NCBI GenBank assembly: GCA_964016885.1
Contig: OZ024741.1
Span: forward strand, 160,890,001 to 160,954,000
Direction: 5' to 3'
Source of the DNA: Eledone cirrhosa
Lineage: Eukaryota
DNA: 64,000 nucleotides
Shown: one piece after another, positions 9,548-38,100 of the stretch
Position numbering within the stretch: the first letter of the stretch is position 1
Layout of the letters: each line of letters starts with the position of its first letter
Position numbers and translations under genes: made by a program
The notes under the pieces: model-generated
Databases searched by the model: none
The model's input: only the letters and a program-made list of their open reading frames with translations
What the model was told of the DNA's origin: nothing

Positions 9548-9579
<32 letters not shown>

Positions 9580-9580
9580 G
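9000..9580. repeat. (CA)n/(TA)n/(TG)n microsatellite-rich tract
   Basis: Visible dinucleotide runs. They account for the H/T/I/Y/V/C-rich spurious ORFs here. Confidence 0.9.
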
Positions 9581-10019: not shown

Positions 10020-11912
10020 GTGGGTTCGTCTTAGCGAGAAGTGTTTAGACGGGGTCCGTATTTGTTAATAAAGTGAGATTCCTTGCTAATGCACTGGGTG
10101 TGGGTGGCATTATCTTTAAATTTATAGAGGGGAAAGATTCTAAAGTTGGGATGATTTTGGGCGGCACAGGTATCAATGTGTTCACTCAGTGGTATTTTCC
10201 TGTATTCCCGTATTTTAATTTGGGATCTATGGACAGTCTTGCGTTGGCGGAGGCTGTTTTTGGTCTGGCCTATGTATTGTTCTCGACAACCTGAGCAAGT
10301 TAATACATATATTAGATTTTCTGATGCGCATGTGAAATTGTGTTTTACTATAAAACGTTGTCCTTCTTTGAAATAGAATTCCGAACCCTCTATTAGGTTG
10401 ATGCATGTGCCACAGTTGGGTCTATCTCATTTTTTTTACTGTGGGTTTCGTTGTTGTGGTTGGCAGTACTTTGGCATGTGTTAGGATGTTTTTCATTGAC
10501 TTAGATTGTCTTTTGCTCTTTATGATATCGTGTGTTCGAAGGATTTGGTTCATTCTATGGTCCTTTATTAACACAGGGATGTTCTGGAGGATGGTGTGAA
10601 AGGCCTCATTGTTGAGGGGGTTGTGTGTGGAGATGTATGGAAGAGCTTTTAGTTTCGGTTGATTTACTTTAGGGTGTCTAAGGTCCTGGGTACTGAGTTT
10701 TAGGGCACGTTGGATTCCATTGTCAATTAGTGATGCAGGGTAGTCCCTGCCTATGAGTGTGTCCTTTAGTTCTTGTAGCCGTAAGTAACAGGTGTTTTTA
10801 TTGGAGACTATAGTACAGATTCTCTTGGCTAAGTTGTAGGGAATATTAATTTTAACGTGTCTAGGGTGGCAAGAGTTGAAAGGAAGATATTGCTTGGCGT
10901 CTGTGAGCTTGTAGTATATGTCTGTTTCTATTTTTTTGTTATGAATCTTAATGAGGATGTCGAGGAAGGGGAGTTGTTGATGGCTGTATTCCATCGTAAA
11001 GTTAATATTCGTGTTGAGCCCATTTATAAGGGTGTGAAATTCTTTAAGTTTCTCTATGTTTTCGTGCCAAAGGACGAAGCAGTCATCTAGATATCGCTTC
11101 CAGTTCTTTTCTATGTGTAAGTGGAGTGTTTCCAAATTTGTTTAGTACTTTAGTGTAGAGGGTGATTTCCAGGTATCCCATGACTAGGTTGGCATAAGTG
11201 GGGGCTGTTTTCGTTCCCATAGCGGTCCCAGATTTCTGCCTGTAGGATTTGTTATTGAAAACGAAGTGATTGTTCTCCAAGATAAATTTGAGTCCCTCTA
11301 TCACGAATTCTTTTTTGATGCGTTGTGGGAGTTCATTGTGGTAATTATCCAGCCAGAATTGGATAGCTTCTATTTCTAGGTTGTGGGGGATGTTGGAGTA
11401 TAGGTTGACTACATCGAACGTCACTAGTAGGGTTTGCTTAGAAAGGGGCATATTAGGGAGGTGATTGAGCATATCTAGGTTGTCCCTTATATAGCTTTTG
11501 ATGTGTTTGAGAAAAGGCTTGAGAAGGGTATCAATGAAGTTGCTAAGGCGGTGGGTTTCGCAAGCGGGGCCTGCTATTATAGATCTTAATTTGAGATCAT
11601 TGGGTGAGGGGACATTGATGACTATGTCTGTGGCTTCCTTGCATGCCTTACTTATTAATTCGCTTTTATGTACTTTAGGGATACCGTAGAAAAGGCTGGA
11701 TTTACTTGTGAAGTCTGTGATGAAGCTGAATTCCTTGTTAGTGAGTCCTTCTTTGTATTGGTTGATCAGAGTTTTTAGGTTTCTCATAATTTTCTGTTGA
11801 TTGTAGTGTTCAGCCTTTTCGTAGTATGTTTCGTTTTCCAAAGTGGAGGGCGCTAAGTTGATATAGAATTCTGTCTCCATTAGGACTACTGTACTCCCTT
11901 TATCAGCCTCTT
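10020..11912 (-). mobile_element. Penelope-like element: RT plus GIY-YIG endonuclease, frameshifted and 5'-truncated
   Basis: EADKGSTVVLM, FYGIPKVHK, LVTFDVVNLYSNIPH, YRQKSGTAMGTKTAPTYANL, WKRYLDDCF, LPFLDI, TDIYYK. GIY-YIG NLIYVLTCSGCREQYIGQT at about 10260-10320. Frameshifts near 11130 and 10430. Confidence 0.95.
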
Positions 11913-12540: not shown

Positions 12541-13033
12541 ATTTTACAATAATATTAGTGGCAGCCCCCCCTCCCGTTAGTTACGCCACTGGGTCTGACA
12601 TGGAATAAAAAAAAAATTTGAAATAAAAGTATACTATTGTGATTATTGTGCCTGGCAACAACAGGCTACTCAGGTAATTTATACATAGCAAGATTACACA
12701 CTGTATTTATATAGATATAACTTTATATATAAATTGTATATAATGAATAAAGATATATATGTGTGTGTGTGTGGGGTGGGTGGGGTGCACATGCGCATTC
12801 GTGTATGTGTGTGAGTATACATACACAAAGAGAGGCAGAAAGAGGAGAAGGGTGTGGTCTGGTTGTTATAACTACAGGTTTCACTTAACTATTGCGAGCT
12901 AGTGTTTCAGCTTGCGTGTTCCAGCTACTCGTTCAGGTTAAACTTAAGGTAGGTAGATTATTATTATTTTCTTTTTTATGTGTAGCGTTTTATTCACTGT
13001 TGTATAAATTACATTACAAATTGTTTATAATTC

Positions 13034-15836: not shown

Positions 15837-15912
15837 ATCACAGTTGTCGGTCGAGTTAACTCCAAGTAAAAATGTCAGAAAAGAAAAAGATTTGCGTAGT
15901 CATTGAGTACTG
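15837..15912 (+). CDS. Selenoprotein first coding exon (35 nt of 5' UTR, then MSEKKKICVVIEY + TG)
   Basis: Acceptor tttctgtttag|ATCA. ATG at 15872 in AAAAATG context. Donor TACTG|gtaaat splits the Cys codon (phase 2). Confidence 0.85.
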
Positions 15913-18351
15913 GTAAATATAACTATATATATATTTCTTTAAAAAAAAACCCAAACCTCAGGGCAACTGTCAGCTTTTTTTTCAATATCTTTCTTTTGTT
16001 AATGTACTTTTATTTGATTTTATATGTTTGTATTTTATCTATAAAAGTTGTTCAAATATGTTACGTAGAGAAGATCCATGTTAAAAATTTACCTTTGCAA
16101 CTATTGTATACTATTGACATTACCGTAATACTAAGTTGTTTTTGTTTAGTTCTAAGTTTTTGTTTAGTCCTTTACAAATGCATTCCCTCCAATCTCATCT
16201 TTTCTCAGGCATAATGTTGCTACAAACTTTGGAAAAGAAAAACGTAACAGACGTTATTTATCACAAGGCAAACAAATGCTAATCCTAAGTCCCCCTACTA
16301 CACACTGTAACATGGTTGGTCATAGGAAGAGCATCCAGCTGTGGAAAGATGGCCAGAGAGAGGTTTGTGGGGCCCCATCAGTTATGTTAAAATATGACAA
16401 CCTCACTAGTACTGGTACCATGATAAAATACAATTGGCAGAGCACAGGGCCATTTGTAAGTGAGATGCGAACTCCTGGCCTGTCTGGGAGTTCAGTAGAC
16501 CTGCTTCAGTACTGATTCGATTTGTGAAGACATGTCCAACTCTTGCTAGCAGTAAAAGTGGACATTAAATGATATATATATATACACATATATATGAGTA
16601 TATGTCTATATATATATATATATCATCGTCATCACCATCACCGTTTTATGTCCATTCTTCCACGCTAGCATGGGTTAGATGGGTTGTCCTGTTGTGGGTA
16701 GTGCCAGGTCGGGTGACCTTGACTTGCTCATACGGGAACTGATTTGGCTTGATTTCTACAACTGGATGCCCTTCCTAACACAAACCTCATTTACAGTGAG
16801 TGCTGGGTGCTTTTTTTCCGTGGCGCCTAGGCGACCACTTTACAGTGTGGGCTGGGAGCTTTTTAGCCGTGACACTTCCACAATATATATATGTATATAT
16901 ATCAGTTCAAGGTTCAATCGGGGGTAACCACAATTATTAAGGTACTCAATACATTAGTAGAGTGTAAACATCAAGTTTAATATGGAAATGGCTTCTACAG
17001 GGCTAGAACTGTTTCATTCAGAAGAAATCATCAATACCAATATATATAATCTCAATTTGCTAGACCAACTAAAATAAGTCTGTTTTACTCCTACAGTTCC
17101 CTGACCATGGTTTCTGGATTTCAAAAAACAACACTAACTATTCCAATACATTAGTCAGTCTAGCTCATATCCCCCCAAATTGAGATTTTGGCTTAAGTTT
17201 AATATATTTTATGTGTGCGTGTGTGTATAAAAATTTATATATCATCATCATTCATCATCATTTCATTTTACGTCCGCTTTTTCCCTGCTTGCAAGGGTGG
17301 GACGGGAACTGATTTTGGCTTGATTTCTACAGCTGGATGCCCTTCCTAACACCAACCTCATTTACAGTGAGTGCTGGGTGCTTTTTTGCCGTGGCACCTC
17401 CACGACCACTTTGCAGTGGAATGATATGGACCCCAGTCCCTATCATCTCATTTCTACAGCTGAGTAAACTGGAGCAATGTGAAATAAAGTGTCTTGCTCA
17501 AGGAAACAACACATCACCCAGTCTGAGAATTGAACTCACAACCTTTCGATTGCAAGGCCAATGCTCTAACCACTAAGCCATGTGCCTATATATATATATA
17601 TATGTATTTATATATATTTTTAATTATTACATATATATTTGTATATATATAAGTATATATTTGTGTGTATATATATATATATATGTATGTATGTATTTAT
17701 AAATAAAATACAGAGTTATTATAACTCATATTGATACCCGGCAATTAACAAGCTCAAAGTATAAATACTGAGCATTGAGTTCAAATCCCGCCAAGGTTAA
17801 CTTTGTCTTTCATTCTTATGGGGTCGATAAAATAAAGTACCAGTAATACACTGGGTAATTGCTAGCCTTGTGCCAAAAGTAGAAACAATTATATAATAAT
17901 ATATGTAGAAATAAACACAATTTTCAGGGCGAAACGGATTAAATCTCTAATCTGTCCGAGAGATGAAATGGTTTTTGATACGGTCAGTATAGAATTATAT
18001 CCTACTGTATGTTTAAGATTAAATATATAAAACATTTGTGGCATTTTCTACCCTTGTAATTTTAGACACGGAATTTACTGTGTTTATTTCTACATATATT
18101 ATTATATGTATTTATATATATTTTTTATTATTACATATATATTTGTATATATATAAGTATATGTTTGTGTGTGTATATATATATATAACTAATAAATAGT
18201 TTATCACTCTACATGGCTGAATACAATAAATCTAATCTGAGTTTTTTGAATATTAATAATAATATTCGATTTGTTTGCAATTATGCAAACAGCCTCTTTA
18301 AAGCCATGTCAGTAGAATGATCCCACAATTCTTGCTCTTGTGTTGGCATGT

Positions 18352-18442
<91 letters not shown>

Positions 18443-21400
18443 TATGAAGGATGACAGCTGCATAAAAAGGTGCAGAGCACTAGAAGTCGATGGAAACTGC
18501 GGAGTGGAGAGACCCAAGATGACCTGGGATGAGGTGATAAAAGCCGACCTTACACAATTACACCTCTCAAAGGCAATGACACACGACCGTGACCTCTGGC
18601 GTCACGCAGTAATACAGAGTACCCGACCTCCCATGGGTACATGCTGAAGCATATAGACAATATGCCCCCACACCCTCCCACTGCAAGGTGGTCGTGGAGG
18701 TGCCACGGCAAAAAAGCACCCAGCCTAGACTGTAAAGTGGACGTGTAGGCGCCACGAAAAAGCACCCAGCACTCACTGTAAATAAGGTTGGTCCATGTGA
18801 CTGAATGTAAGCAAAATGTAGACTTTTGGTCTATTAGAAGACCTGGTTTAGTACTGACTTGATCTGTGAAGACCAGTCCAACCAAGGCTAGCAGGGAAAA
18901 TGGATTTTAAATCATGATGATGATGATAGTTATATGTGTGTGATGATAATTATGTGTATATATGTAGGTGTCACAACAAAAAGCACCCAGGCCACACTGT
19001 AAAGTGGTTGCATAGGTGTCACAACAAAAAGCACCCAGCCCATACTGTAAAGTGGTTGCATAGGTGTCACAACAAAAAGCACCCAGCCCATACTGTAAAG
19101 TGGTCATGTAGGTGTCACAACAAAAAGCACCCAGCCCACACTGTAAAGTGGTCGCGTAGGTGTCACAACAAAAAGTACCCAGCTCACACTGTAAAGTGGT
19201 CGCGTAGGTGTCACAACAAAAAGTACCCAGCTCACACTGTATATGTGTTTGGCGTTAGGAGGGGCATCCAGCTATAGAAATCTATATGAGTGAGACACTG
19301 CCACCTTGCCCATTTAACCCATTTATGGGTTAAACGGGCAAGGTGGCAGTGTCTCACTCATATAGATGTCTATAGCTGGATGCGTGGACGTTAAGCAATG
19401 ATGATGATGATGATACACATGTATATATGTATAAATATATGTATGTCATCACCATCATTGACTGATAGACAAAAATATTGCTTATTCATTGTTAACATTC
19501 AACAATTAGACAACAAATGAAATGCTAACCACTCATATTCCTAGCATGATTTAAACTTCTCTGTAGCAACCATAATTCTTTTACAAACTTTTGATTTTAA
19601 CATTCTTTTATTAGTCCTCCTCTCTCCTCACACACACAAACAGTTACAGACACAGGCATACACACACATACATTAATTATCATCATCATCGTCACTGTTA
19701 CTGTCCCCACCACCATCATTATCATCATCACTATTAACATCAATTTTTCATACTTGAACAATGTATAACAATATTCCTTATTTATTGTTTTTCTCCAATT
19801 TAACATTCAACAATTAACCAACAAATTGGATGTTATCCATTTGTATTTCTAGTGTGATTTAAACTTTCCTGTACCAACTATAATTCTTTTACTTGATTTT
19901 TATTTTAATATTCTCTTATTAGTCTCCCATCTACCCTCACACACTCACACATACTTTTATCAACATCATTGTCGTCACTGCTGCAATCATCACCATCATT
20001 GTCTAATAATTTTTGGGGAATTAGACATGATGGATTGTCTTGCAATCTGAATGCAGGTTGCTTTGCTTCTCATACCAAACTAAAACAGAGCACTAGCCTG
20101 GAATTTGTAGCAGTAATTAATCTCTTGTTTTGATGTTAACAAAGTAGATCAGAGTAACCACATATGCTGACCTCTGGGCAACACATTGCTCATTTTCTTT
20201 TGTTTCAAAATGTGGCAGCTCCTGGTCTAGAGAAGGGAGTATTTGCAGTTTATCAGAGATTAAGTACTGTATTTCCTGGCATCAAAGATGCTACTTTTTT
20301 CCCAGAGTAAGTCTCAAAAATCTACCATGCGTCCTGGAGGCCGAAGGTTGTTTATTATTTTTTTTTCAAATTTTGGGTTGTCAAAATTAGGGTACATCCT
20401 TGAGGATGAAGCATCTTTGGCGCCAGGAAATACGATAGCTTCTACACACATTCTTCTCTTGTCTCTCAAAAAGGAGACATCACACGGAGTTACTCTAGCA
20501 AGTAGAGAGATGTAACACTTAGCCAAACATTATGGTTCTCTCGACAAGAACCTGACAGCAATTCTTTCATTAGCACTTCAACACCTCTCAGTCATCTGCC
20601 TTTTCTCTTAGACAACACAGCTTCTTTACCACTGCATTTGTACAACACAACCTCACCATAACAGAGTTTACTACTACCTCTGTTGGTACATACTATCTGA
20701 CTACAACTTGTCACTTTTTGAAGAGAACAACGCATGGTAAACAAATAGACTCCTGCTCAACACAGAAGCCTTATTGAACACTATATTCATTTGTGAAAAC
20801 TACAATCAAACTTTATATTGACGATTCGAAGCAATCGTAATTTTTTCCTTTCTGCTGAAGTGAAGTAAAGATATAAATTCAATCAGAATTATTGGTATTT
20901 GTCATGTTTATCATCCTCTTCCAAAACAACCAAAATTTAATTTCAAATTGTAGCCACTGCTGCTGTCATCACCGTCATCGTCTAATCATTTTTGGTGGAT
21001 TTAGACATGATGGACTGTCTTGCTATCTGAATGCAGGTTGCTTTGCTTGTCATACCAAACTAAAGCAGAACACTAGCCTGGAATCTATCCAGGATTCAAT
21101 TTTATTCTATCATCTGCTCCATAGTTTTCTGTTTCCCACTGTAAACAAAGAACCAATTCATCAGCAAAGAACAGTTAACAAAGGGATAGTACAACTCAGC
21201 ATCATTACCCCAGTGATGTGGATCTGGATGGAATGGGGGAAGCGTTTTCTTATGTATGGGAGCCCATGTGCAAAGTGCCATGTGGTCCCAGTGAACAGAA
21301 TGGATAAAACATTGCCATGGGGGATGGTGAGGGAGATGCATTGGAATGGCCATTCCAACTCACAGGGTTCACTCCTACAGATGACCAACTCTGCTGCAAT

Positions 21401-24400
21401 AGTAGTAAGTAGGGATGTGGACTGGGGGTCAAAATCACCGGAAGTCTCAACTGCTTCAGGATTGATCATAAATCTATTGGAGAGCAATTGATATTTTGAT
21501 AATTTTCCCTCTTTTGTCTGATGAGCAGCAAAGCCTAGGTTAGTTGTTAAATGAACCATGTTGCTGCTGAAGAAAGTGTCACACAATGTAACATCCCAGA
21601 TGAGGGGTTTATCACTGCAGAACAGGAAGATTATTAGGCTGTCTGGCCTTTTGCCATTCCCTTGGTTCAGCCCCACTGGCTCAAACTGGGAAAGGAAGCC
21701 TGCAGTGTTCTAGCCACGCTTTATGATCTCCAAAAATTGAAGATGGCAATGATGGAGAGAGAAGTGCTATGGACATCATGTCACATACATTGACAACCTG
21801 ATGTGGGATACTGGCCTGAAATCTACATACCAACTGAAGATGGTAATGATAGACAGAGAAGTGTGTAAAATAGACATTTTTTTGACCTGATGGCAGCTGG
21901 GCCTAACTAACTACTGTGTGAAAATAGAAATATAAAAAAAAGTGAAATAGAACAGTTACAAGAAAAAAAATAAACTGTATATTATATAGTTGGGGATAAT
22001 TAAAGAAGATCAACTAATTATGAATGTTAAAATGGTGTATCTGGTTCATAAGAGACACAATGTATCTTTACCTGTTGTAAGTTAGGACTAAAATGAAGAG
22101 CATCCGGTCATAAAACATTGTCTCAAAAAGGACCCCATGATGCATATGATTAAGCATATCACAGTCTATTACCACATTCTTCATAAAGTACACTACTTAT
22201 GATTTTCTATTACTTTTGAAAATTATTAAGAATTTGAAGGGATTAACATGGTACGTGAAACAATAAAATATTTCTTAAATAAAATTATGATGGAAGCTTT
22301 AAATTTAAATATGAATATTTAACATCAATAGCTTTGTATCATAGAACTAGGTGTCATTAGAACATTGGGTAGAGTGCTTTATGGTATTCATTCCAGCTCT
22401 CTGCTCTCTGAGATCAAGTGTAGCTGAAGTCAACTTTGCCTTTCTTCTTTTTGAGGTTGATAAAAAAAAGTATCAATCCAGTACTGGGGTCAATTCTTCC
22501 TCTTTATTTCTTACTCACTCCCTCTCTCTTACTCTCTCCTTTGGAAAAAATTGGCTGTGGGGAGGGGATGGATGTATATCACTACTGTGCTCCCACAACT
22601 ACACCAGGAGTCCATACATACATCATAGGACAATGTGTAGTTTCAAGAGGGCTAATATCAAGAGGGTAACTATGCTCCTTGATTTTATAGAAATTTAGAT
22701 TCTTTATGAAATCTAAACAAAGTAGGAACATTGAATATGAATAAATCTTTAATCTTTATCTCCTTTTCCTCATTTTACAAATTTGATATCTCAGTTTATC
22801 CCTAACTATCTTATCTAGCTATTTTTCTCACTGATTTTGTCTTATAGCCAAGGATGAGGTGGACAGCGAACGATGGAGTCACTTCGTGATGAAATCCTTA
22901 AAAATGTTTCTGAAGCCGAAGTAAAAACCATTGTTAGCAGTAGAAAAGGTATGATTTATTTTATTACATATGCATCATTTGACTATTCTTTCATTCTTTT
23001 ACTGGTTTCAGACATATGAGCAAATGTCACATTTAAAAATAGAAAGATATAACAGTGTCATGTGAAAATGTTTAATGGAATTACAGCTATTAGTTTGCAT
23101 ATAGAAAAACAGAGACATAACTATGTCATTTAGCCAGGCGGAAAGACCTAAAATGTACAAAGAAGAAATCTAGAGGCGTATTTTGTTTTTTAAATCAGCA
23201 GAATACTTGAATAAATATTTCTTACCACCATGTATACAAAATTGGGCTGATCGAATAAATTCAAAATTAAGGATACTGATTGGCAGTATCGGTAGAGCGT
23301 TGGATACCATGCTTTGAGGCATAGATTTATGGACCTTTACGTTCTGAGTTCAAATCCTGCTGAGGTTAGCTTTGCCTTTCATCCTTACGAGGACGATAAA
23401 ATAAAGCACCAGTAATGCACTGGGGTCAGTTTAATCGACTTTCCCCCTCCTGCTTCAAATTGCTGGCCTTGTGCCTAAAGTAGATACAATTATCTACCAT
23501 AGTTTGTGCATTAAACTATTTAAAGACAATGATCCACTGTCCATCCTTGTAAATATATATATGCGTGTAATCCCCTATATTTGTTTATCCAGGAATAAGA
23601 ATTAGTACACATGTACAGATATATTAATGTCCATTCATAATGACTTTCATGGATATGCACATGTTTGTGTATATTTGTATGGATATACACACATATACAC
23701 ACATTACTGCATGAATATGTACATAGTCATACATGTCCTCACATATATATGTGCTTACATGTGTGTTTATAGAGATGTGCAAAAATGTACAATATAAAAA
23801 ATATATAAAAAAAGAAGAATGTAAAGTCAAAGTTAAATATGATTGTTGTTTAGTGTTGCATCATGGCATATTTCATCTGCATTCTGTTATGGTGTATACT
23901 GCTCTTATCCATTTGGATATGATGCTGCTAGTTGTGAAATTGCCTCTGATTTTTTGTTTGAAATACATTTGTTCAAAATACAATTGGCAAAAATGGGGTT
24001 CCTCCGAAGGGTTTTTAGAGTAACGTTACTCAATAGAGTGCATAGTTTGGAGATCAGGGAGTCACTTCAGGTAGAGCTACTATTTAACTGAATTGAGAGA
24101 TCACAGCTCCGATACTATGGGTATGTGGTTAGAATGTCTCAGGAAAGAATCCCTGGACAGATTTTATGGGCAAAACCAACCGGCAGGAGACCCAGGGTTA
24201 GACTCCGAGCAAGATGGCTGGATAATATCTATGAGCTTGGCTGGTCTTGCTTGGGGATGGTTGGAGATGGTTGCTTCTGACAGGACCTGCTGAAAGGAGT
24301 GTTTGCAGACTCTGGTTTTGTTGCTGTTGTAAAATTTAGCTTGAGCCAGGATCTCCAAATGTAACCTATATTAGATGTTTCTATATTTCAAACTCCAGAT

Positions 24401-27400
24401 ATAGGCCAAAAGTGAGGTTATATTCTTTCTTATAGGATATTGAAATGAATAAGCATGTAAGTGTAAACATCATTCAAATCTATTGATTGTTAATCTTATG
24501 TAAGCCTCACTAATTGAAGATGTATCAACATTACATTTATAAACGATGTTATTAAATAAACATTTTGCTGCTAAAGGGCAGTTGTCCCTATTGATGCAAT
24601 TACAACTAGAACTAATTCCAGGATTGTCTCTATTTCTATGGTTAGATAGTTTGGCAATATTAGATGAGGTAATTTTATGTGTGAGGTTGGATGTAGTAAA
24701 GTATGATATTTTGACTGTGTTTCTATTGAATATTATGCTAGAGGGAAATGTTTCCTAATTAATGTAAGAAACATTTTAGCTATTGGTGTGGCCACCTCCA
24801 TAATATATGGTAGGTTCTACCATGTGATATGTATAATTCAATTTTCCTAATTCTATGCTCATATTTAGTGTATTCTACCTTTACTAGAAATCTGCTACTA
24901 GCCAGAGCTTCATTATTGTATGTGGAATGGTCAGTGAAAATTTGTTTGTTTGTTGATAAACTGGAAAGCCTCAGTGATACATTCTTGACTAGGTTTTTAG
25001 TTATACTGGTTGGATGGTTAGAAGATTTACTAATGTAATTTAAATACTTGTAGGGTTTTCTATATGGGTAATACAGGCGATTTGACATAAGGTGGCTGCA
25101 GCCTGATGATGTCTGTCTTCCCCATACCAGTAATTGGTATAAGTCGGTGGTCGATTTACCGAGAGGTGGGGACATAATTGATAGAACATGCATGATTTAG
25201 CTTACAGTGGTATGGTTTCGATGTCTGAGGTTGAGTGTAGTTGTATGGTTTATGTTTGCTTGGGTTTGAGGTTGGCATTGATTTAATCTAGATGTGTTTC
25301 AAGTTGGGGCAATCAATGGTTGTAGGCACAGACACACACACACATATATATAAAATAGTGTGTTATTCGAAGACTGCAACAATGCAAGATGGATGGTAGA
25401 TTTTGGAATAAATGGAAGACAATGAAGATATTGGTGTGTTGCCCCTCTCCCCTCCTTACATGGCATCTGAAGCATCTATGTTTTATTTTCTGCCAAATAT
25501 ATTGAATTGAATTGAATTCACCTGTTCTAATATTTCAGGTCTAAAAACCCTTCATCAGAAAACTATGAGAAACAGGCTCAGAGTTTTCTTACTTCTGTTG
25601 TTCAGAGGATTGCCATTTTTCCTTTGTTTGTTTACAATGATCTATTTATAGCTGCTGGAAAGAATGAGTGAGTGATGTCGTCTGTGAACTGACTTGTATA
25701 TAATGTGTGTGTAGGTGTGCATGTTCCTGTCAAATATTGTGTGCTTTTGTTAATTATTAATGTCAAATTTTTTAATGTAAATAATGTATCAAGTTGCAAT
25801 AGTTTGGATAATTTAGCGATTCTAGATTAAGTTATGTGTTAGGACTGTATATGAATGCATGTATATGTCAAATGTGTGTTTAGTTGTAATTGCCTGATAG
25901 AGTTGCCTATTACACATGTCTGTATTATGTCAGAGGTTATGTGTGGGTGCTTTTATGTTAAGTATTGCATGCTAAGTTCAAATCTGTTGTTGATTTGTGG
26001 GTTAAGCTTAGCTATTAATATTCCTTCTTTGATACTAAGGTTGCCTAAGTTGCACTCCTTGGCTTCAATAGTAACTATTATGACTTTGTTATTGTTTTTG
26101 CATTTGTCTAAGTATTTCCTGAAGGAGAATGTTCTTTAATGCAGATGGGAAGAGGTCTAATTGTACTACCGATGTAAAAGTCCCTGTATTTGTCACATTG
26201 AATGTGGTACATTAAATATGCTCAGTGGTACATACCTGTGTCATGAATGAGGCAGTTTGCCAGTGTGCATTGGCTGTTGTTGTCCCTGGATTGTTTTTTT
26301 TATAGGTGTCCTCATAGTAAAGTAGTAAAGGGCCAGAGTGGGCTAGTTGTATATCATACAATTAGCCCATTCCAGCCCGTCACACACACACACATGTCTA
26401 TATATATATGTATCATCATCATTTCATTTTACATCCACTTTTTTCCTGCTTGCAAGGGTGGGACGGGAACTGATTCTGGCTTGATTTCTACAGCTGGATG
26501 CCCTTCCTAACACCAACCTTATTTACAGTGAGTGCTGGGTGCGTTTTTGCCATGACACCTCCACGACCACTTTGCAGTGGAATGATAGGGACCCCAGTCC
26601 CTATCATCTCATTTCTACAGCTATATATATATATATATATCTGTTCCCTATTTGGTGAGCTGTTTAATATGTCGAGAGGCTGGACTGCTATTTCTAGTGG
26701 ACGAGAACCCTTTCATGTCATTGTGGATGCTAAATTCATATATTGATACCATGTGCATTTCGTCACTGTCAACCCTGAATTGACTGAGATTGGGTAATTT
26801 TAAAACTCCCTCACTGACGATCTGTTTCAAAATACCTAATTTCGCTGTTATTCGGTGAAATGTATTCTGATTTTATGGAGAATACATGCGAGGGAAATAT
26901 ATTGAACGTTATCAGGTATTTTGCTTTAACGTTTTATTAATTTTAATAAGATACTCAACGAATTATGTAATCTTACATTTAGTGCAGATTGTCTCTAGTT
27001 TTGAAGCTTTGATATATCTTAATGCACGCTTATGTGTGTATGAATATATTTCATTAACTTTCTTATAATGATATATATATATATAAAGTTAACTTGCCTA
27101 AGACTAAAGTTCTAGTATGTAGGAAGGAAAATAGGGCTCAGGTCCCCTCTGGGAAATGGCCATGCTCAGTGTGTAGGAAAGGAGTAGGCAGAAATTCCAT
27201 TTTATGTCCCAAATGCAAAGTATGGGTGCATAAAAGATGTAGTGGGATCACAGGTAAGCTATCTAAGAACGTAGATTTTATATGTGGCCGGTGCTCAGGT
27301 GCAATAAGTAGCAAGCGACCACAGGATACTAGCTCCTTCTATTGTCCAGATGGCTCTATAGAAATAGTGGATACCTTCCGTTACCTGGGAGACAAAATCA

Positions 27401-30317
27401 GCGGTGGAGGGTGCTCAGAAAGTACTGTAGCTAGAGTCAGAACGGGATGGAAAAAGTTCAGAGAGCTTATATCACTACTGGCCGCTAAAGGTTTCTCTCT
27501 AAAAATGAAAGGCAGACTGTATGATGCTTGCATACGAACAGCAATGTTACTTGGCAGTGAGACATGGGCATTGTGTGCAGAAGATCTACACAGACTGGAG
27601 AGGAACGAAGCTTGCATGCTCCGTTGGATGTGTAATAGTAATATACGTGAACGGCAAAGCATAAAGGAACTAAGTGAGAAATTAGGTATAAGAGGGATCA
27701 GATGCTGTTTACTCGAGAGAAGACTACCTTGGTATGGTCACCTGATGCGCATGAAAGACGACAGCTGTATAAAAAAGTGCAGGGTGATCAAAATTGACGG
27801 AAGTTACGGAGTAGGCAGACCCAGAAAAACCTAGGACGATTTGATAAATTCCGACCTTACACAGTTACACCTCTCTAAGACAATGTCGCTGGACCGAAAT
27901 CTTTGGCGCTATGCAGTAATACAGAAAACCCGCATTGTCTAAGTACAAAGCGAAACCTACAGTCAAATTTTCAGATTTTCATAATTATATTATTTAGGAA
28001 ATATTTTTTAATTCAATATATATGCAAAGATGATTAATTATGCATCATCTCATTTTTTAGGTGCTTTTGAAATCACTGTCAATGATACATTAGCCTTCTC
28101 TCGTATAGAGTCTGGAAATCACACTGATCATGATACAGTAAGTATTTTACATTTGAATTTACTTTTTATTATTTTCTGTTTTAAATGTGCATTTGAATCT
28201 AATATAATTTACCTCCTCCTCCTCCTCCTTCTTTTTCTTCTTTTTCTTTTTCTTTTTCACTGGATCCCCAAGTGTGGCCAGCCGAGCTCATGGATGTTAT
28301 CCAACCATCTTGCACAGAGTCTACCCCTGGGTCTTTGGTTTTGCCTGTAAATGCGATTCTTTCCTGAGGCATTCTAACCATATGCCCATAGTATTGGAAC
28401 TGTGATCTCTCAATTAGGAGAAGTAGTGGCTCTACTTGGAGTGACTCTCTGATCACTGAGCTACACACTTTATTGAGTAACATTACTCAAAAGTCACTTC
28501 AGAGGAACCCCATTTCAGCTGCTGTATTTGTAATTGTATTCTTTCAGTCATTACCCAAGATTCTCTACCTGCTTCAGTGGAACCCCATTCACATATAGCA
28601 TGCATTACACAGGCTTCCTTAAGAGGACGAGTGTCTCAGGTTTTGCAGCACTGATTTTTATTCCAGCAAACATATTAAGTGCAAGTCGAAGATCATCTTC
28701 TGTCGAGTTGTGTAACACCATGTTGTCTGCAAATTCCAGCCAACAGATTTTACACCCGCCAGTCATGATACCACATCCAATCCAGCTGCGCATGTCAATC
28801 CTCTTCAAGTAAATAATGAACAGGAGAGGTGACAATACACACTCTTGGCAGAGTCTGACTCTCACATTGAATAGCTGCGATTTAGCACTGTTTGCTCCTT
28901 CCTGTGGTCAGACTAAAGCAATTAGAGCAACTGTGCTAGAGAACATTTGGGATCCTCAACATCTGCTCACAAGAAACATAATGTAAGAACCTTAAACGTA
29001 TATGAATGTACTAAAATTCCAACATCAATCGATGCCAACCTCGAAATAGTGGTGACGACTAAAGAAAATGAAATATATTTAATAACAATCATAATATTCT
29101 AAATTTATCATGTTTCACAGCCATGATTTAATATATATTTATATGTGATGGGGCCTCCTCGATTATGTGTCCTTGAGCTGTAACTCATCTTAGCATATAT
29201 TTAAATCTGGTATTTATTATAATCAGCGAGTTCAAATCCCGCCGAGGTTAACTTTGCCTTTCATCCTTACGGGGTCGATAAAATAAAGTACCAGTAATGC
29301 ACTGGGTAATTGCTGGCCTTGTGCAAAAAGTAGAAACAATTATAGTCAGCTGTTCCTCAGAAAATCATCAGTTTATAGCTCAGTGAGCTATCTTGTTTAG
29401 ATAGAAATATCTGATACTACAATGAATTAAAAATAACAATACATAGAATGTGGGTCATCATGACTCAGCCAGCAGTGACAGGTATTAGTTGTATATATAT
29501 ATTACTGCACTTAACTAGAGGTGGTGAATTAGCAGAGTCATGAGAACAGTTGAATAGAATGCTTTGTGGTATTCATTCTGGCTCTCTGCTCTCAAATCCT
29601 GCTAAGGTCAACTTTGTTTTTCATCCTTTTGAGAACAATAAAGAAAGTAACAACCCATTACTGGGGTACATTCTTACTTTTTATCACCTTTTCACTTCTC
29701 TGTCACTCTCTCTCTCCTTCTCTGAAAGAAATAAGCTTTTTTTAAGACCTGGAAAGGGGATGGGTTCCACCAGATTTAAAAGGCTCAAGACATGCTGTAT
29801 GTCACTATGACACTCTTACTATTCTATCAGAATTTACAGGTCCATCCATACCTTATTCCACAAAACTATTGTTATGTCTTATAATATTTTGTAATGATCC
29901 TGTAAGGTTTTTCCTCTCTTTTCTATATAAATTATATTTATTTGTGTGCATTCTGTTAAAAATTAAACTTTTTCAATATCTTCATGTATAGTAAACTCAT
30001 ATTATAAAATACTCACAACTATGTATGTTTATTATGCATAAACATATTATATAGAGACACATATACAAAATATTTAAGAATTTAATAAAATCTTTTATTA
30101 TATATTTCAATGGAAGTATTTTTTCTCTTTTTCTGCAAGCAGGGAAAAGCGGACGTAAATTGAAAAAAAAAAAATGATTACAAACTCTTTAATAAGTGAC
30201 AAATACTTTGAAGAAATATTCAATTTTTGATATTTATTATAAATGTCTATTGTAGTACTTTTTTTCTTTTAACAGGTTATAAGTTTTTTACGTGGTATCC
30301 TGGCAGAAAATAACTAA
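15872..30317 (+). CDS. SELENOW2: Rdx-family selenoprotein (SelW2/MIEN1/SELENOW-like), 86 aa, 4 coding exons: join(15872-15912,22848-22948,28061-28137,30276-30317); Sec TGA at 22855-22857
   Basis: GT-AG exons with compatible phases (2,1,0) total 261 nt and give MSEKKKICVVIEYCQGUGGQRTMESLRDEILKNVSEAEVKTIVSSRKGAFEITVNDTLAFSRIESGNHTDHDTVISFLRGILAENN*. It has the IEYC-x-x-U and GAFEI.VN...FS Rdx motifs and a downstream SECIS. The exact orthologue name is tentative. Confidence 0.88.
16625..16880 (-). mobile_element. RTE-tailed SINE fragment with 48-bp internal unit
   Basis: (CAT)n tail, GCTAGCATGGGTTAGA, CTGGATGCCCTTCCTAAC and CAGTGAGTGCTGGGTGCTTTT. Confidence 0.7.
16990..17040 (-). ncRNA. Degenerate hammerhead motif (family shared with 50165-50216)
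   Basis: Minus strand reads TTGATGA-TTTC TTCT GAAT-GAAA-CAG...CTG-TA-GAAGCC. The first core base is C>T. Confidence 0.5.
17240..17587 (-). mobile_element. Full-length tRNA-derived SINE with RTE-type 3' tail
   Basis: Minus strand: GGCACATGGCTTAGTGGTTAGAGC (A-box), GAGTTCAATTC (B-box), CCTTGAGCAAGACACTT body, one 48-bp unit and the GCAAGCAGGGAAAAAGCGGAC...(GAT)n tail. Confidence 0.85.
18355..18438. repeat. Compound (CA)n(TA)n microsatellite
   Basis: Directly visible. Confidence 0.95.
18438..18645 (+). mobile_element. RTE 3' fragment (same family as 27090-27940)
   Basis: MRMKDDSCIKRCRALEVDGNCGVERPKMTWDEVIKADL. Confidence 0.8.
18964..19242. repeat. 48-bp minisatellite (~6 copies) amplified from a SINE-internal unit
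   Basis: Unit AGGTGTCACAACAAAAAGCACCCAGCCCACACTGTAAAGTGGTYGCRT, followed by the SINE tail GTTAGGAGGGGCATCCAGCT. Confidence 0.9.
19264..19383. repeat. Near-perfect 120-bp palindrome
   Basis: 59-bp arms with a 2-nt loop and about 2 mismatches. Confidence 0.9.
20267..20435. mobile_element. pogo/Tigger-like MITE
   Basis: TA|CTGTATTTCCTGGCATCAAAGATGC ... GCATCTTTGGCGCCAGGAAATACGA|TA, giving TIRs with a TA TSD. Confidence 0.75.
21290..21850 (-). mobile_element. CRE-like RLE 3' fragment
   Basis: GNGKRPDSLIIF..DKPLIWDVTLCDTF...KLSKYQ...PEAVETSG...WPFQCISLTIPHGN. Confidence 0.75.
22848..22948 (+). CDS. Selenoprotein exon containing the Sec codon (C|QGUGGQRTMESLRDEILKNVSEAEVKTIVSSRK|G)
   Basis: Acceptor ttttgtcttatag|C CAA GGA TGA GGT. 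Donor AAAG|gtatga. 101 nt, phase 2 to phase 1. Confidence 0.88.
23930..24300 (+). mobile_element. RTE (Expander/Rex3-like) 3' fragment
   Basis: MGFLRRVFRVTLLNRVHSLEIRESLQVE..IERSQLRYYGYVVRM...GRRPRVR..RWLD. Related copies at 28260-28900 (-) and 63440-63760 (+). Confidence 0.8.
24440..25330 (-). mobile_element. Penelope-like RT C-terminal/linker fragment
   Basis: YYPYRKP..LNYISKSSNHPTSITKNLVKNVSLRLSSLSTNKQIF, then CNCINRDNCPLAAKCL..NIVY (pre-GIY-YIG Cys motif). Confidence 0.8.
25500..26385 (-). mobile_element. Penelope-like 3' end: GIY-YIG remnant plus pLTR
   Basis: About 26130-26210 translates HIQCDKYRDFYIGSTIRPL..IKEH. A hammerhead lies at 25522-25563. Confidence 0.7.
25522..25563 (-). ncRNA. 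Minimal type I hammerhead ribozyme (Penelope pLTR)
   Basis: Minus strand reads GTTTT-CTGATGA-AGG GTTTTTAGA CCT-GAAA-TAT-TA-GAAC. Confidence 0.75.
27088..27940 (+). mobile_element. RTE LINE 3' part with an internal PHD-type zinc finger
   Basis: KTKVL...WPCSVCRKGVGRNSILCPKCKVWVHKRCSGI...FICGRC (C4HC3), FRYLGD, KGRLYDACIRTAMLLGSETW, WYGHLMRM and GRPRKT. Confidence 0.9.
28061..28137 (+). CDS. Selenoprotein exon (G|AFEITVNDTLAFSRIESGNHTDHDT)
   Basis: Acceptor ctcattttttag|GT GCT TTT GAA. Donor ACA|gtaagt. 77 nt, phase 1 to phase 0. Confidence 0.9.
28260..28900 (-). mobile_element. RTE (Expander-like) fragment
   Basis: LCQECVLSPLLFIIY...LEFADNMVL (RT) and IRESLQVEPLLLLIERSQ..YYGHMVRM. Confidence 0.8.
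30276..30317 (+). CDS. Selenoprotein last coding exon (VISFLRGILAENN*)
   Basis: Strong acceptor tttttttcttttaacag|GTT in phase 0. Encodes an amphipathic C-terminal helix. TAA at 30315-30317. Confidence 0.78.
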   Translation, partial: VISFLRGILAENN

Positions 30318-30838
30318 CTCAAGCTGTTCAACTCCATAAACTAATTTATCTACAAGAAACTGCTGCAATTATGTTAAAGCTTAAACACTCTGAAAATAAA
30401 TTTGCTTCTTCCTTTCTAAATTAATATATATACTCAGGACACAGATATACAGAATGAAAGAAAGAGGTAGTAAAAACCTGTGAGTTAAGGGTTGAAACAC
30501 TTGCATGAGATGATTTCTTCTCTGAAGACCTTCAGCTCTCCAGCTCTCTCTAGAGTTTCTTGCTACTTGCTTCTTTCTTTCTAAGTTAATATAAGACAGT
30601 ATATAGATAAATATACACAAAGAGGTATGAGTTCAATTATAAGGGATAGAACACATACCTCTATGTGTATTTTTCTCTATATACTGTCTTATAAAGAGCC
30701 AAGAATGTATTCCTTGAGCTCATTAAATTACAGGGGATTTACGTGAGTCTAACTCCGTTTTTTAATTTAATATATATATTAAAGGCCTTGACTACCATAT
30801 TTCTTATCTAAATCCTTATAGCATGATAAATACTGTGA

Positions 30839-31150
30839 GGACAGTGGATTGACAGTGTTATTAGAGCACTGGACAAAATGCTTTGTGGTATTTAGTTACA
30901 TCCTTTATATTCTGACTTCCAATCCTGTCATGGTCAACTTTGCCTTTCTTCCCTCAAGGTGTCAATAAAATAAAGTACCAGTAAAGTACTGGGATCAATA
31001 TAATCATCTTCCCATCTACAAATTGTTGCTTTGAGGGAAGAAAGGCAAAGTTAACTGTGACAGGATTGGAAGTCAGAACATAAAGGGATGTAACTAATTA
31101 TCGCAAAGCATTTTGTCCAATGCTCTAATAACGCTGTCAATCCACTGTCC
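30839..31150. mobile_element. Deu/Nin-like SINE plus inverted partial duplicate
   Basis: 30839-30957 is the imperfect reverse complement of 31031-31150. Confidence 0.85.
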
Positions 31151-31270
31151 TACCAGTATCTATTATAATAGGTGTAACGCTGTCAATCCACTGTCCTACC
31201 AGTATCTATTATAATAGGTGTAACGCTGTCAATCCACTGTCCTACCAGTATCTATTATAATAGGTGTAAC
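31129..31270. repeat. 3x perfect 46-bp tandem repeat
   Basis: Unit TAACGCTGTCAATCCACTGTCCTACCAGTATCTATTATAATAGGTG. Confidence 0.95.
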
Positions 31271-31964
31271 TTGGAAATTTCCATTCACTGCATCCTATAT
31301 GTTGTTCCTTTACTGTTCAACAGAAAAATATCACTCTACCAATGGTGTGTTCTGATTACAGTCTAATTTCATAATGAGCTTTTAATAGGGTTTACACATG
31401 TGTGTCTTTGTGGATGTGATGGGGGTCTCCTTTTTTTCTGTTCGTTTCTCACTTTCTCTTCTTTGCTTCTTTCTTTTCCCTCACTCACTTTCATTGATTC
31501 CTCCTACTTCCCCTCTATATATATCTTTATTTCTCCCTACACCCTCTTTCACTCAATATATCCTCTCTCCTTCTCTATATATATCCTTGTCTCTTTCTCA
31601 TTCAAATATCCTCTCTCTTTACTCCCTCATCCAATGTTTTTTCTCTCCCTCCTCACCCACTTTGGGGGTTTGTGAAAAAATAATGAGTTGGGGTCCCACA
31701 GGATTTGTCACTAGGGCTTGACAGTTCTTCATGATATTCTAAAGCTTCTATTTTTAAAAATGATAATTTCTTTAATAAGGAAAAAGTGTGTACACATATA
31801 GTCTTTCTATTATCCAATTTAAGAGGAATATTTGGGGTTTATATTTGGAAATTGATAGTCAAAGCTGAATTCTAATCTTCCAGTTCTTTCTCTGCATTAC
31901 AATTGTTAAACTAAAAAAAAACCCTCTTTATTGCTTGCTTTGAAACTTTTCACTTGGCTTTCTT

Positions 31965-32043
31965 ACTGGATATTTCTGTTGATGAAAACACTGATCTAAA
32001 CTTGTATCGATCAGAGTTGGATAAATTTTGTGGAATATCCAGT
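31965..32043 (+). promoter_or_regulatory. Eukaryotic SECIS element (type I)
   Basis: Helix I ACTGGATATTTC/GGAATATCCAGT. Core ATGAA (31982-86) / GGAT (32019-22). Helix II AACACTGATC/GATCAGAGTT. Apical loop T-AAA-CTTGTATC. Same strand as, and downstream of, the CxxU gene. Confidence 0.88.
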
Positions 32044-32989
32044 GAAAAACTTGACTGAAAAATATGTTTGGAAATTATATTTTAAAAAAATACTATTTTG
32101 TGTTTGAGTGTTGTTTTTTCAATGTTGTTTTTGTTCTACTTTCAATTACCATATTATACATTTATTTTTCTGTTTTGACATGGGTAGTATTCGTTTGTAA
32201 ATTTACATATCTTTACTTATAGAATTCCTTAGTGTTGATAAGTTTGTAAAAACCTTAGTTAATGATCTCAGGTTTTATTCCCTTTTGCAGCTATATTTAA
32301 TATAGTATATCATCACCATTACCATCATCATCATCATCACCATCTTAGGTCTATTTCCTTGTTTGCAGGGGTTAAATGGGTTGTCATGTTTTGTGGCTAG
32401 ACAGGTTAGATGACTCATGTTCCATTCTGGTATGGTTCCTATGATTGTATGCTCTCCCTAACACCAAACAGTTCATGGTGTGCACTGAGTGTATTTTATC
32501 ATGGTACAACCACTTTATAGAATGGTGTATTTTATTGTGGCTCTAGTGCTACCACTTTACTGCGTGGACTGATTGCAATTTATTGTGGCACAATTTATAT
32601 ATATATATGTGTATATATGTATAACTTTGATAGGTTTTAGCCAGTATTGGCCAAGGCCATGTCTAACTTTCTAGCACCATCTGGCAAAGTCTTTTAAATC
32701 ATACTTCACACTTTAGTCAGGCTTTGGACATGTTGGTGAAGACATATCTGGAATTTTTTTGAGGAATTTGTCCAGGGACCTTCTCTATTTTATGGGATTT
32801 TTTTTGTCTTGATGTATTTTTGTCTTTATACCAAATCTGGTTTCCCACTCCCTTAATGTTGTTCCCACGACAAAAAGCACTTTGTCCACCCAGTCTGGCA
32901 CCACAACAGCTAAAGAACCCAATCAATCTGTGTGTCATACTGATAACATGAAAAGAGGCAGCACCAAATGCACTCTATAAGATGATTAT

Positions 32990-35120: not shown

Positions 35121-38100
35121 CAATGGTTCCCAACCTTTTTTTAGCTCATGGCTCACTTTGAACCCAGAATCTTTATGTGGCCCATGAAATTATTATAGTG
35201 TAACAAATTTACTTCCATTTTACATAGAATATATCCAATAAAGATACAACTATGTCTATTTATTGGACACACAATTTCACAAGCATCTAAAATATTTCGC
35301 ATCTCCAATGAAACAACCATTTATTATCAATATTTATTTTTACAATTTTTCCTATCAAAAAAAAATTAAGACTTAAAGAACCAATTCTTTAGCTTCAAAA
35401 TATGAATAACTATAAGAAAGAAAATTGGTTTCAAATACATTTATTCAATGAGATTCTTGTCCCTGATGCGTCTTTGCAAGTTTTTCTATATTAGGATCAT
35501 GCTTGTCAAAGAGAGATGCAGATTTCCTCTTCTTATGATTTCTAAGCAATTTCTAGCTTTTGATAATAGTTGAGATGCTCCGCTAAATCCTGATTCTATT
35601 AGGTAAGTTGTTGGAAACATAGTCATATATAATTTAACTTTCTCCCAGAGCAATGGAAAATCAAATCTTCACCAATAGTATGCAGTTTTCCAGTTTTTGC
35701 TATTAGTTTTGAAATTTTACCAGCTGCGATTAAACCTTTGTCTTATTTATCCTGACATTTGCTAAATAATGAAGTAAGAGTGCTTCTTTGGAAATCATCA
35801 CATATTTTTTTGAAATAATCTAATGATTTGTCTTCTTATCCTTGTGCTTACTCTCCAGATGATATTTAAGCTTACTTGAGTGCATACTATCATTAGAAAG
35901 TTATGTCATACATAAGAGACACATTGGCTTTGTTATATTGTTTGGAGACTTTATAAAAGCGTATGCTAAAACCTCACGTGTATTGTCGACATGGTTTCTT
36001 CTTATCAGCCATGATAATCTGGTAATATATCAGGGAAAAAAAAAAAATAATTGATATCTACCTAATATCTAAATACATAATAATAATATTAATGAAATTA
36101 TTGTGTACAGTGCTCAGGTGCAGTACAACTCATCAAAGGTGCATGCATAGTACATAGAATAATGTACAAATGTCAGGAAAGTGAACACTGTATGAGTCAT
36201 GATATACATGTGTGCGTGTGTATCGAGTGGGGGATATCAGGTGTAGTATTGGCGAATCTCAGGAAGCATGGAGGTTTTAAAGGATGCAGTGTCTCGACAG
36301 CTAACATCTGATGCAGGTAGTTTGTCCCATGCTTCAGTAACTCTGAGTGTGAAAAAATGCTTCTGAAAGTCATGGGAGCTGTGCTGTTTTCTGATTTTGT
36401 AGGCATGCCCACATGTGTTAGACACATAGAATTCAAAAAGGTGCTCAGGGTTGTTGTTGACAAGATGGTTAATAGTTTTGTGGCTGCTTACCAAGTCAGT
36501 TTTCAGACATCGGAGCTTCAATGTATCCATGCCCAGGGGAGCAAGACATTCAGAGTATGGTAGATGCCCCTATTGGAGGTTATTTGCTTGGTTGCATGTC
36601 TCTGAACAGTTTCCAGGAGGTCAATGTTCTGAGCAAGATATGGGTTCCAGACTGGTGATGCAAATTCTAAGTGTGGCCACACCATAGCTATATACAGCTT
36701 TAAATAGATAGCTGGAGAGCGGCTGACAAAGTTCTTCCTGAGTAATGCCAAGACCCCCTCGGCCTTCTTGACAATTTTAGAGATGTGCTTTGTCCAAAGC
36801 AAATCACTGCTGATAGTAATGCCCATGCCACGTTCTCAAGAAGACTTCTTGATATTAGTGTTGTGGAGGGAGTGTGTGGACGCTGGGTTTTCCTCCCAAA
36901 ATGCATGGTGGTACACTTGTCCACATCCAGCTTGAGTTGCGAGTCTGTGATCCATTGTTGCAATGTGTCCAGGTCAGATTGCAGGAAAGATCTATAGTGT
37001 TCAGGATCTGTCCTTTTTATCTCAAAGTACAGATTGATGTCATCTGCATATTTCAGCACTGTGGCATTCTTTAAGTTATCATCTATGTCATTAATATATG
37101 CAACAAACAAAAGGGGACCAAGAACAGATCCCTGCAGTACGCCAGATAACATCTCATACGGTGACGAATGCTGTCCTAGAACCATACCACCTCCTTTTCG
37201 ACTGAGAATGAAGGACATCAACCAGTTAAAAAGATCATCCTTCACACCCATTGCAGAGAGTTTTACCATAAGTCTTTTGTGTGGCACAGAATTAAAAGCC
37301 TTAGTAAAGTCAAGGTAAACAACATCCACCCATGAGCTGCCATCAGTGATCCGGATGATGTCTTCAAGAAACTCGATAAGTTGATCACAGCAGCTGGAGT
37401 TAGGGATAAATCCAAATTGCGAGCGGCGGATCAGGCTGTGGAAATTCCAGAGTGTTTCTCTGACACAGGATTCCATCAGTTTGGCAATGCAGCTAGTAAG
37501 ACTGACTGGACGATAGTTGACAGGCAACGTACGGTCACCCTTTTTGAACAGAGGAATGAAACTGGCAGTTTTCCACTGCTCCGGAGTAGCACCATTGTTA
37601 AGACAAAATTGAAAGAATAGTGAAAGCTGGTGCAGAAGAAAGTACCCACCACGTTTGAGAAGCAGGTATGTAACACCATCTAGACCAGGAGAGGCATAGT
37701 TCTTAAGGTCACATCACAGCATTGCAGGTGTAAATTCCATAGTTGTTATAGAATTTGCAGAGGTGGTGGAGATAGTACGTTTTGGTTTTCATCAGTAAAA
37801 ATGTCTGCATAGCATTCAGCAATGAGTTCTGCGCATTCTTTGGGATCGTCAGTAATCTGGCTTGTGTGGGGATTGTGAAGAGGACCAGCTGGAGAGAGGT
37901 CTCTGCTTTGAATGTATATATTTCCAGAACACCTTACTGTCAGGGTTGGTTGCTATGCGCTGTTCAAATTCAAGCACTGCTTTTTTGTCAGATGATTGGA
38001 TGATTTATTGTGCTTTTTTCTATTGATATCTGATTTATGCAGTTTGTATTCCCATTCAGCATTATGACGTTCTTTCCTGGACTGCGGCAGTCTCCCAAAT

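Follow-up and report, generated by a model that had tools for sequence, protein, structure and literature searches.

The window considered here, a stretch of 64,000 nucleotides (nt) from the octopod Eledone cirrhosa, raises the question of whether a TGA inside a short spliced reading frame is a stop codon or a codon for selenocysteine (Sec). It spans positions 160,890,001-160,954,000 of contig OZ024741.1, hereafter C2, in a genome of 3.0 Gb. The original prediction, made from the letters of the window, was that it conceals a functional Sec-decoding gene of the thioredoxin-like Rdx family. This gene, referred to as copy W, is very probably a functional SELENOW2 (MIEN1-like) selenoprotein gene with Sec at the UGA, and among four paralogs on C2 it is the copy that has lost the C-terminal CaaX prenylation signal. 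Splicing, family membership, the Sec machinery, and the presence in the paralogs of both the UGA and a selenocysteine insertion sequence (SECIS) speak for the predicted function. The insertion of Sec is itself inferred from the established pathway and the sequence, and the copy has proved to be derived and fast-evolving.

Copy W consists of four exons with AG/GT ends and intron phases of 2, 1, and 0, which join in frame to 86 codons, so that the predicted exon coordinates and protein both hold. The one internal stop is the TGA at 22855-57, codon 17, which occupies the U of a C-Q-G-U motif exactly as had been claimed, while the true stop is the TAA at 30315-17. The codon of Cys14 is split by the first intron, and the Sec codon follows three residues later. 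The coding part of exon 1 (15872-15912, 41 nt) was also placed correctly, and the same acceptor and donor are found in paralogs A, B, and C. The exon itself starts at an acceptor before 15838, however, and the further 5' exon implied by a contig end described below had not been listed. Exon 2 matches the profile of relatives with a probability of 97%. An N-terminal extension was also considered, as the frame is open upstream of 15872, and it was judged unlikely because transcript-derived relatives begin at the equivalent Met.

Four public runs, X1 to X4, cover the 3' region of W, and the kind of run is unrecorded for all four. The comparison was made on contigs only, spanned 22500-32300 with exon 1 and intron 1 outside, and included a single RNA-like run. 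X1-X3 cross the introns at a depth of 6-15 and thus behave as DNA; they may come from the assembly's own sample. X4 is termed RNA-like solely because it has GT-AG joints and its intron bins are empty. Two of the three predicted junctions are exact joints in X4, 22948/28061 (GT..AG, depth 4990) and 28137/30276 (depth 3911). The third, 15912/22848, appears only as a loose end of 106 nt before exon 2, whose 30 displayed letters match exon 1 at its 3' end. An exon 1 starting at 15838 explains 74 of these 106 letters, so a further 5' exon of at least 32 nt exists. In the 3' untranslated region (3'UTR), X4 contigs reach a depth of about 2800-5500 over 30276-31942, and one contig with a depth of 442 lies over 32015. 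Separate contigs cannot prove one transcript that carries both the coding sequence and the SECIS.

These joints bear directly on the explanation that W is an artefact of assembly or consists of exon-like pieces that fit together by chance. Single exons do fall under the Pfam cut-off and loose SECIS patterns are common, but the spliced joints already refute this explanation and three paralogs have the same structure. Moreover, for the exons of W, the TGA included, the four runs gave no listed difference, a result to be read with the limits that contigs drop rare variants and that the X1-X3 counts are incomplete. The probability of a chance join is negligible.

The four paralogs A, W, B, and C are dispersed on the plus strand of C2, 6-87 Mb apart. 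All four possess middle exons of 101 and 77 nt in equal phases, with a TGA in the same column. Conservation of a TGA or Cys at position 17 had been proposed as a check, and in addition to the TGA in A, B, and C, a Cys is found there in 29 of the 102 relatives with a readable motif. Searches of the genome with the SECIS gave the four known sites and no fifth paralog. A search with an exon-1 pattern returned the same four paralogs and one match on contig C17, with 9 matches in the control, and a homologue search with exon 2 and its intron flanks gave no candidate. A genome-wide Pfam Rdx search yielded 4 matches from 7 candidates, W not among them. Two other places in the genome were noted. Exons of another Rdx-family gene, presumably one resembling SELENOT, lie at C9:40,647,200-40,647,700. 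A weak Rdx-like stretch with a CxxC and a later TGA lies between microsatellites on the minus strand at C1:229,220,136-229,220,210 and is a chance match or a relic.

A SECIS had been predicted 1.65 kb past the stop. The AUGA of the hairpin found there begins at 31982, 1665 nt past the stop of W, and the hairpin at 31965-32045 has the anatomy of a SECIS, with one mismatch in helix II. The fold of 31965-32050 has an energy of -23.5 kcal/mol (z = -4.07), and 1 of 200 shuffles was equally stable. By itself the hairpin is weak evidence, because its Rfam score is under the cut-off and loose SECIS patterns are frequent; a scan with such a pattern gave 8 matches in the window, the W element included. 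The comparison of the paralogs is more telling. A genome search with the SECIS region found exactly four sites, all on C2 and one behind each paralog. The four copies share 33 of the 41 bases of the core, compared with 20/51, 30/64, and 28/85 in the flanks (0.33-0.47). Of the cells in the consensus fold, 97.6% are paired, compared with 27-42% in slid controls, and both of the compensated pairs in this fold occur in the W copy. The predicted element stands on its anatomy and on its conservation in four paralogs. At 32015, in helix II, the sole X4 contig has G for A, opposite the A-A mismatch, and the DNA of paralog A has G as well. This G may be an allele, A-to-I editing, or cross-mapping from paralog A.

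The genome also encodes machinery for Sec, for which tRNA-Sec and SepSecS were searched. Two tRNA-Sec genes were found, each scoring 77.7 bits, with the TCA anticodon confirmed for one, together with six exon matches to SepSecS. The two equal-scoring tRNA-Sec genes lie in inverted orientation at C23:15,059,770 and 15,118,228, 58 kb apart.

The assignment of W to the Rdx family depends on the spliced product rather than on its single exons. Alone, exon 3 scores 15.8 bits with Pfam Rdx (PF10262; E 0.016), under the cut-off of 22.6, and is likewise under the cut-off of TIGR02174 (E 0.00038), and exon 2 alone gave no Pfam Rdx match. On a profile built from 115 database relatives (the sequences of 70-130 amino acids (aa) out of 149 found), the spliced product of W reaches 75.2 bits, whereas the best of 1000 shuffles scores 10.3. 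Two relatives pass the Pfam cut-off: P0004, a full-length database relative of paralog C that passes TIGR02174 too, with 54.5 bits, and the Octopus vulgaris protein CAI9736224.1 (P0050), one of the 115, with 33.6 bits. Cys14 and TGA17 align with the Rdx family columns of the N-terminal CxxU/CxxC motif, and the in-frame UGA is kept in the spliced mRNA, aligned to the Cys or Sec of homologues. Residues F50, E51, N55, L58, and S61 match the consensus, including its G-x-F-E-(I/V) and F-S signatures. The structural model of P0004 serves as a proxy for W. It has the Rdx thioredoxin-like fold with a predicted local distance difference test score (pLDDT) of 85, and by alignment all of its fold elements appear to have counterparts in W, the last helix at residues 77-88 corresponding to W residues 71-82.

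Within the family, W is closer to MIEN1 than to SELENOW1. In searches of PDB, the exon-3 profile matched human C17orf37/MIEN1 with an E-value of 5e-6 and mouse SelW with 0.44, the values for P0004 were 4.3e-11 for MIEN1 and 0.25 for SelW, and the named database matches are MIEN1. SELENOT possesses a long insert with a transmembrane part, SELENOH an AT-hook/nuclear localization signal, and SELENOV a long N-terminal domain. These three candidates were rejected, as the 86-residue product is without their features and no such PDB or named match was found. Tico et al. assign every invertebrate gene of the SELENOW2/MIEN1 group to the SELENOW2 branch and describe repeated, lineage-specific duplications in fish (PMC13134290); Mariotti et al. 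report the same placement and duplications for SelW2 (PMC3316567). Three SelW-family genes are reported from the limpet Lottia (PMC3473315). Because MIEN1 is the best match and invertebrate genes have been placed in the SELENOW2 branch, the W gene is, as judged from its sequence, SELENOW2 (MIEN1-type) and not SelT, SelH, or SelW1. The broader Rdx, SelW2/MIEN1-like assignment of the original prediction is thereby refined, and SelT and SelH, which it had named as family members, drop out. In a tree of 35 rows, with one named vertebrate MIEN1 and zero named SELENOW2, the deep forks are open and the bootstrap is not quite settled. In this tree W, A, B, and CAI9736224.1 form a clade (96/89), within which CAI9736224.1 sides with B (94/79). 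C is placed together with three relatives from the database and with the other O. vulgaris piece.

That piece is CAI9736223.1 (P0002), which together with CAI9736224.1 is the closest named protein to W; both are annotated as 'hypothetical'. It had been predicted that annotation would fail at the Sec codon and restart at the following Met, and the O. vulgaris models do precisely this. CAI9736223.1 is a C-like gene read out of frame around the UGA; the model continues into the first exon of the copy that follows, where it ends with C-Q-S at the Sec position, and CAI9736224.1 begins at the Met just after. The stop codon at this O. vulgaris position is presumably TGA. The models imply tandem copies, unlike the dispersed copies on C2. 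Such failures are common for selenoproteins; just 5% of those of vertebrates are reported to be well annotated in GenBank (PMC12822975).

The same Met could also be used by the ribosome. If the UGA were mostly a stop, it would close a 16-codon upstream frame, and reinitiation at the Met at 22873 would yield a 64-residue protein without Sec, the selenoprotein being minor or selenium-dependent. The Kozak context of this Met is stronger than that of the first ATG, and the Met is common to paralogs A and B and the O. vulgaris relative. However, it is absent from paralog C, the short form is without the first strand and the entire redox motif and scores 52 instead of 75 bits, and the conserved SECIS and Cys14 would be left unexplained. 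Reinitiation as the main product is therefore quite improbable. The UGA of W lies 91 nt upstream of an exon junction, and by the usual rule a UGA that far before a junction exposes the mRNA to nonsense-mediated decay. Thus, the W mRNA should be open to such decay when selenium is short.

Another way of removing the stop would be A-to-I editing, known from cephalopods, which would convert the UGA to UGG and place Trp instead of Sec. Trp does occupy this column in 72 of the 102 relatives with a readable motif, three close relatives included, and the X4 contig at 32015 carries an A>G difference. In contrast, X4 has no listed A>G at position 22857, the G on the 5' side of this A is an unfavourable neighbour for ADAR, which counts against editing at the UGA, and the SECIS would serve no purpose. 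The Trp of distant relatives is most simply ascribed to gene callers reading TGA as Trp. Editing of this codon is thus very improbable.

While the active site of W is intact, its C-terminus is not. A CaaX box closes the proteins of paralogs A, B, and C and of 22 of 32 aligned relatives, which makes the box typical, not universal. Between the last acceptor and the ancestral stop, W has 64 nt, compared with 84 nt in C and 93 nt in A and B. On the paralog alignment, a frameshifting deletion in the last exon of W removed the CaaX, leaving the stop at its present position and a remnant of the box at 30325-30339 in the 3'UTR. The loss spares the last helix and, judging by the model, affects a low-confidence tail only. 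MIEN1 is reported to be prenylated at its CAAX by geranylgeranylation (PMC6738349). With its CaaX lost, W would be unprenylated and soluble and its sisters membrane-anchored. By its sequence W appears to be a SELENOW2/MIEN1 member by descent, but one that cannot act as a prenylated MIEN1.

Several observations weigh against W as a functional selenoprotein gene. The ratio of nonsynonymous to synonymous rates (omega) is 0.73 over 75 codons in the four paralogs and 0.78 on the W branch, the neutral model is not rejected (p = 0.17), and purifying selection at the codon level is not supported by the omega model. The W branch is the longest of the four, 0.82 compared with 0.20 for its sister. After U-G, both W and A carry G in place of the Tyr found in 86 of 104 relatives, and W has H-T for F-P, where F is found in 99 and P in 105 of 115 relatives. 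The hairpin of W scores 21.3 bits with Rfam SECIS_1, compared with a gathering score of 35; this model matched just two of the four paralog copies at E<=10, both under the cut-off. The covariation in the SECIS, from four sequences, is not above the shuffle control, in which 110 of 500 shuffles reach 2 compensated pairs. Lastly, expression is supported by one run of unrecorded kind through contigs only, and the depth of X4 at the 3' arm of the SECIS is about a tenth of that over the rest of the 3'UTR.

Part of this evidence would fit a transcribed but decaying duplicate, in which Sec is perhaps inserted into a protein that has become dispensable, the loss of the CaaX and the altered motifs being signs of early pseudogenisation. 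Omega is indistinguishable from 1, the branch is long, the last exon is frameshifted, and conserved residues are lost. However, an equally high omega is found in all four paralogs and is thus a family trait. The orphaned CaaX codons have decayed at three codons, yet the frame, splice sites, Cys, UGA, and SECIS are intact, the modeled fold core is complete, and the depth of the X4 contigs is about 3000-5500. Moreover, between W and A there are differences at 58 of 178 sites in the exons and at 35 of 228 in the intron flanks (p = 5e-5), and exon divergence above that of the flanks is unexpected from plain decay. When neutral drift was simulated, 2.7% of the runs kept all hallmarks with 0.1 substitutions per site, and 0.01% did so with 0.3. 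Because neutral drift so seldom keeps the hallmarks, to a degree set by the assumed branch length, the survival of the frame, splice sites, Cys, UGA, and SECIS core in the sequence supports function, and decay is improbable. Positive selection is hinted at by the contrast between exons and flanks, but it is not claimed here, as a codon model of the W branch against the background gave p = 0.88. Relaxed and positive selection cannot be separated with these data. The changed Tyr and F/Y-P pair suggest an altered substrate preference.

As a functional SELENOW2 gene, W would depend on the pathway of SECIS, SBP2, eEFSec, and Sec-tRNA, which would read the UGA as selenocysteine and produce an 86-residue thioredoxin-like Rdx protein. 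Its Cys14/Sec17 pair would then cycle between a selenolthiol and a selenenylsulfide, reducing protein thiols or oxidants, and would do so in a soluble protein rather than at a membrane as in the sisters.

Paralog A differs from W at the active site. Its exon 2 starts with A, which turns the split codon into TGA and the motif into U-S-A-U. The same base creates a tandem TAG-AAG acceptor (C2:74,103,905/908), and use of the distal site would yield C-A-U. Given the reported order of acceptor preference, CAG > TAG > AAG > GAG (PMC2699507), the UxxU form of paralog A would be favoured. At the level of sequence, A is predicted to be a further independent UxxU case. A more ambitious reading takes the four paralogs as a SELENOW2 toolkit that diversifies location and chemistry, with C as the ancestral anchored CxxU, B N-terminally extended, W soluble, and A an anchored UxxU diselenide enzyme, and it takes the twofold faster divergence of exons over intron flanks as positive selection. 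One base change in A would then have made both the second Sec codon and the tandem acceptor, so that alternative splicing by 3 nt might toggle its active site between U-S-A-U and C-A-U. This toolkit is at present doubtful.

The features of the locus and its paralogs are collected in Table 1. The donor of the candidate 5' exon is one of 6 strong donor-like matches upstream of W; comparison with the paralogs gave no match for this exon, and a 5' exon could not be located in that way.

Table 1. Features of copy W (window positions) and its paralogs (C2 positions)
Feature	Position	Strand	Remarks
Candidate 5' non-coding exon	12850..12948	+	Read from sequence; donor after 12948; left edge guessed
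First coding exon	15838..15912	+	Acceptor 15836-37, 34 nt leader, ATG 15872; ends on first two bases of Cys14 codon
Second coding exon, 101 nt	22848..22948	+	Completes Cys14; carries Sec codon, helix 1, strand 2
In-frame TGA, codon 17, inferred selenocysteine	22855..22857	+	TGA at equal position in paralogs A, B, C
In-frame ATG, six codons past UGA	22873..22875	+	Strong context (A at -3, G at +4); annotators' false start, possible reinitiation site
Third coding exon, 77 nt	28061..28137	+	G-A-F-E strand hairpin of Rdx fold; spliced joints on both sides
Last exon, coding part, 42 nt	30276..30317	+	Present stop TAA 30315-17; last helix kept, tail gone
3'UTR, about 1.75 kb	30318..32060	+	Repeat-derived inverted segments; from X4 contigs; 3' bound approximate
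Orphaned CaaX codons (now C-S-T-P) and ancestral TAA	30325..30339	+	Out of frame, in 3'UTR; from paralog alignment
SECIS-like element	31965..32045	+	Helix I, AUGA/GA core (31982-85, 32020-21), helix II, AAA 31998-32000 in 12-nt loop (form I)
Paralog A	C2:74,100,277-74,116,588 (74.10 Mb)	+	103 aa; U-x-x-U; CaaX CLIL; SECIS
Paralog B	C2:166,730,783-166,745,863 (166.73 Mb)	+	150 aa; 60-codon first exon; U-S-S-W after motif; CaaX CIAL
Paralog C	C2:205,089,087-205,099,118 (205.09 Mb)	+	106 aa; conservative, ancestral-like; C-N-S-U-G-Y; CaaX CTIL

The surroundings of the gene are rich in repeats. Judged by eye, the long open reading frames (ORFs) of the window resemble retroelement and transposon fragments, and reverse-transcriptase (RT) fragments were read by eye from the ORF list at 9400-11910 (minus), 24783-25196, 27058-27831, 36703-37713, 42177-42923, and 52197-56991. 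Among these fragments, upstream of W, is a Penelope-like RT/GIY-YIG element; Penelope-like elements bearing selenoproteins have reportedly been described. A 368-nt direct repeat (53077-53444 and 54804-55171, 1.7 kb apart) is 99.7% identical between its copies and represents a recent duplication or a terminal repeat. The 3'UTR of W contains inverted repeats at 30596-30696 (a short palindromic element) and 30847-31130 (two opposed copies of a common repeat), which could form double-stranded RNA substrates for editing, and a perfect 46-nt tandem repeat of 3.1 copies at 31129-31270. Rfam microRNA matches in the 3'UTR (MIR1919 and mir-1277) were rejected, being far under the cut-off and caused by the inverted repeats. 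A phage search with one of these 3'UTR segments gave no match and was uninformative.

The correction of the gene model removes a blind spot in annotation, as a well-expressed gene is concerned whose relatives are split or truncated in public octopus models. The substrates of SELENOW2/MIEN1 are poorly known, and a comparison of the four natural variants, which differ in prenylation and have either one Sec or two, could show what anchoring and the diselenide contribute. No description of octopod SELENOW2 genes was found in the literature, as judged from titles and the openings of abstracts, with few subscription papers covered. Neither a new recoding mechanism nor a new selenoprotein family is involved. 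The family and the recoding mechanism are known, and the new part is the lineage-specific variant, a CaaX-less copy that is one of four and has a UxxU sister.

Among the known systems close to W is the SELENOW2 of invertebrates, fish, and frog, likewise a CxxU Rdx selenoprotein, with lineage-specific duplications common in fish. The present case differs in that four dispersed copies occur in one octopod genome and that W is CaaX-less and has U-G-G for U-G-Y. MIEN1 (C17orf37/Rdx12; PDB 2LJK) is the best solved-structure match by sequence and has the thioredoxin-like fold, which is predicted for W as well, and a CaaX like that of the sister paralogs. In contrast, the MIEN1 of amniotes has Cys for Sec and is geranylgeranylated, whereas W has a UGA and a SECIS and no CaaX. 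SELENOW/SelW1 (PDB 2NPB) possesses a CxxU and the same fold as the P0004 model, and it is small with no CaaX end. Despite this likeness, it is a far weaker match (E 0.25-0.44), and W lost its CaaX secondarily, leaving a remnant that can still be seen. CAI9736224.1 and W both carry an S-R-I-E-S-G stretch and are both without a CaaX, while the C-terminus of CAI9736224.1 ends elsewhere. Lastly, UxxU forms of SELENOW, with two Sec codons in the motif, are reported from amphioxus and Ostreococcus lucimarinus (PMC7539508, PMC3473315). This likeness holds for paralog A, in which an intron interrupts the first UGA at the tandem TAG-AAG acceptor, and not for W.

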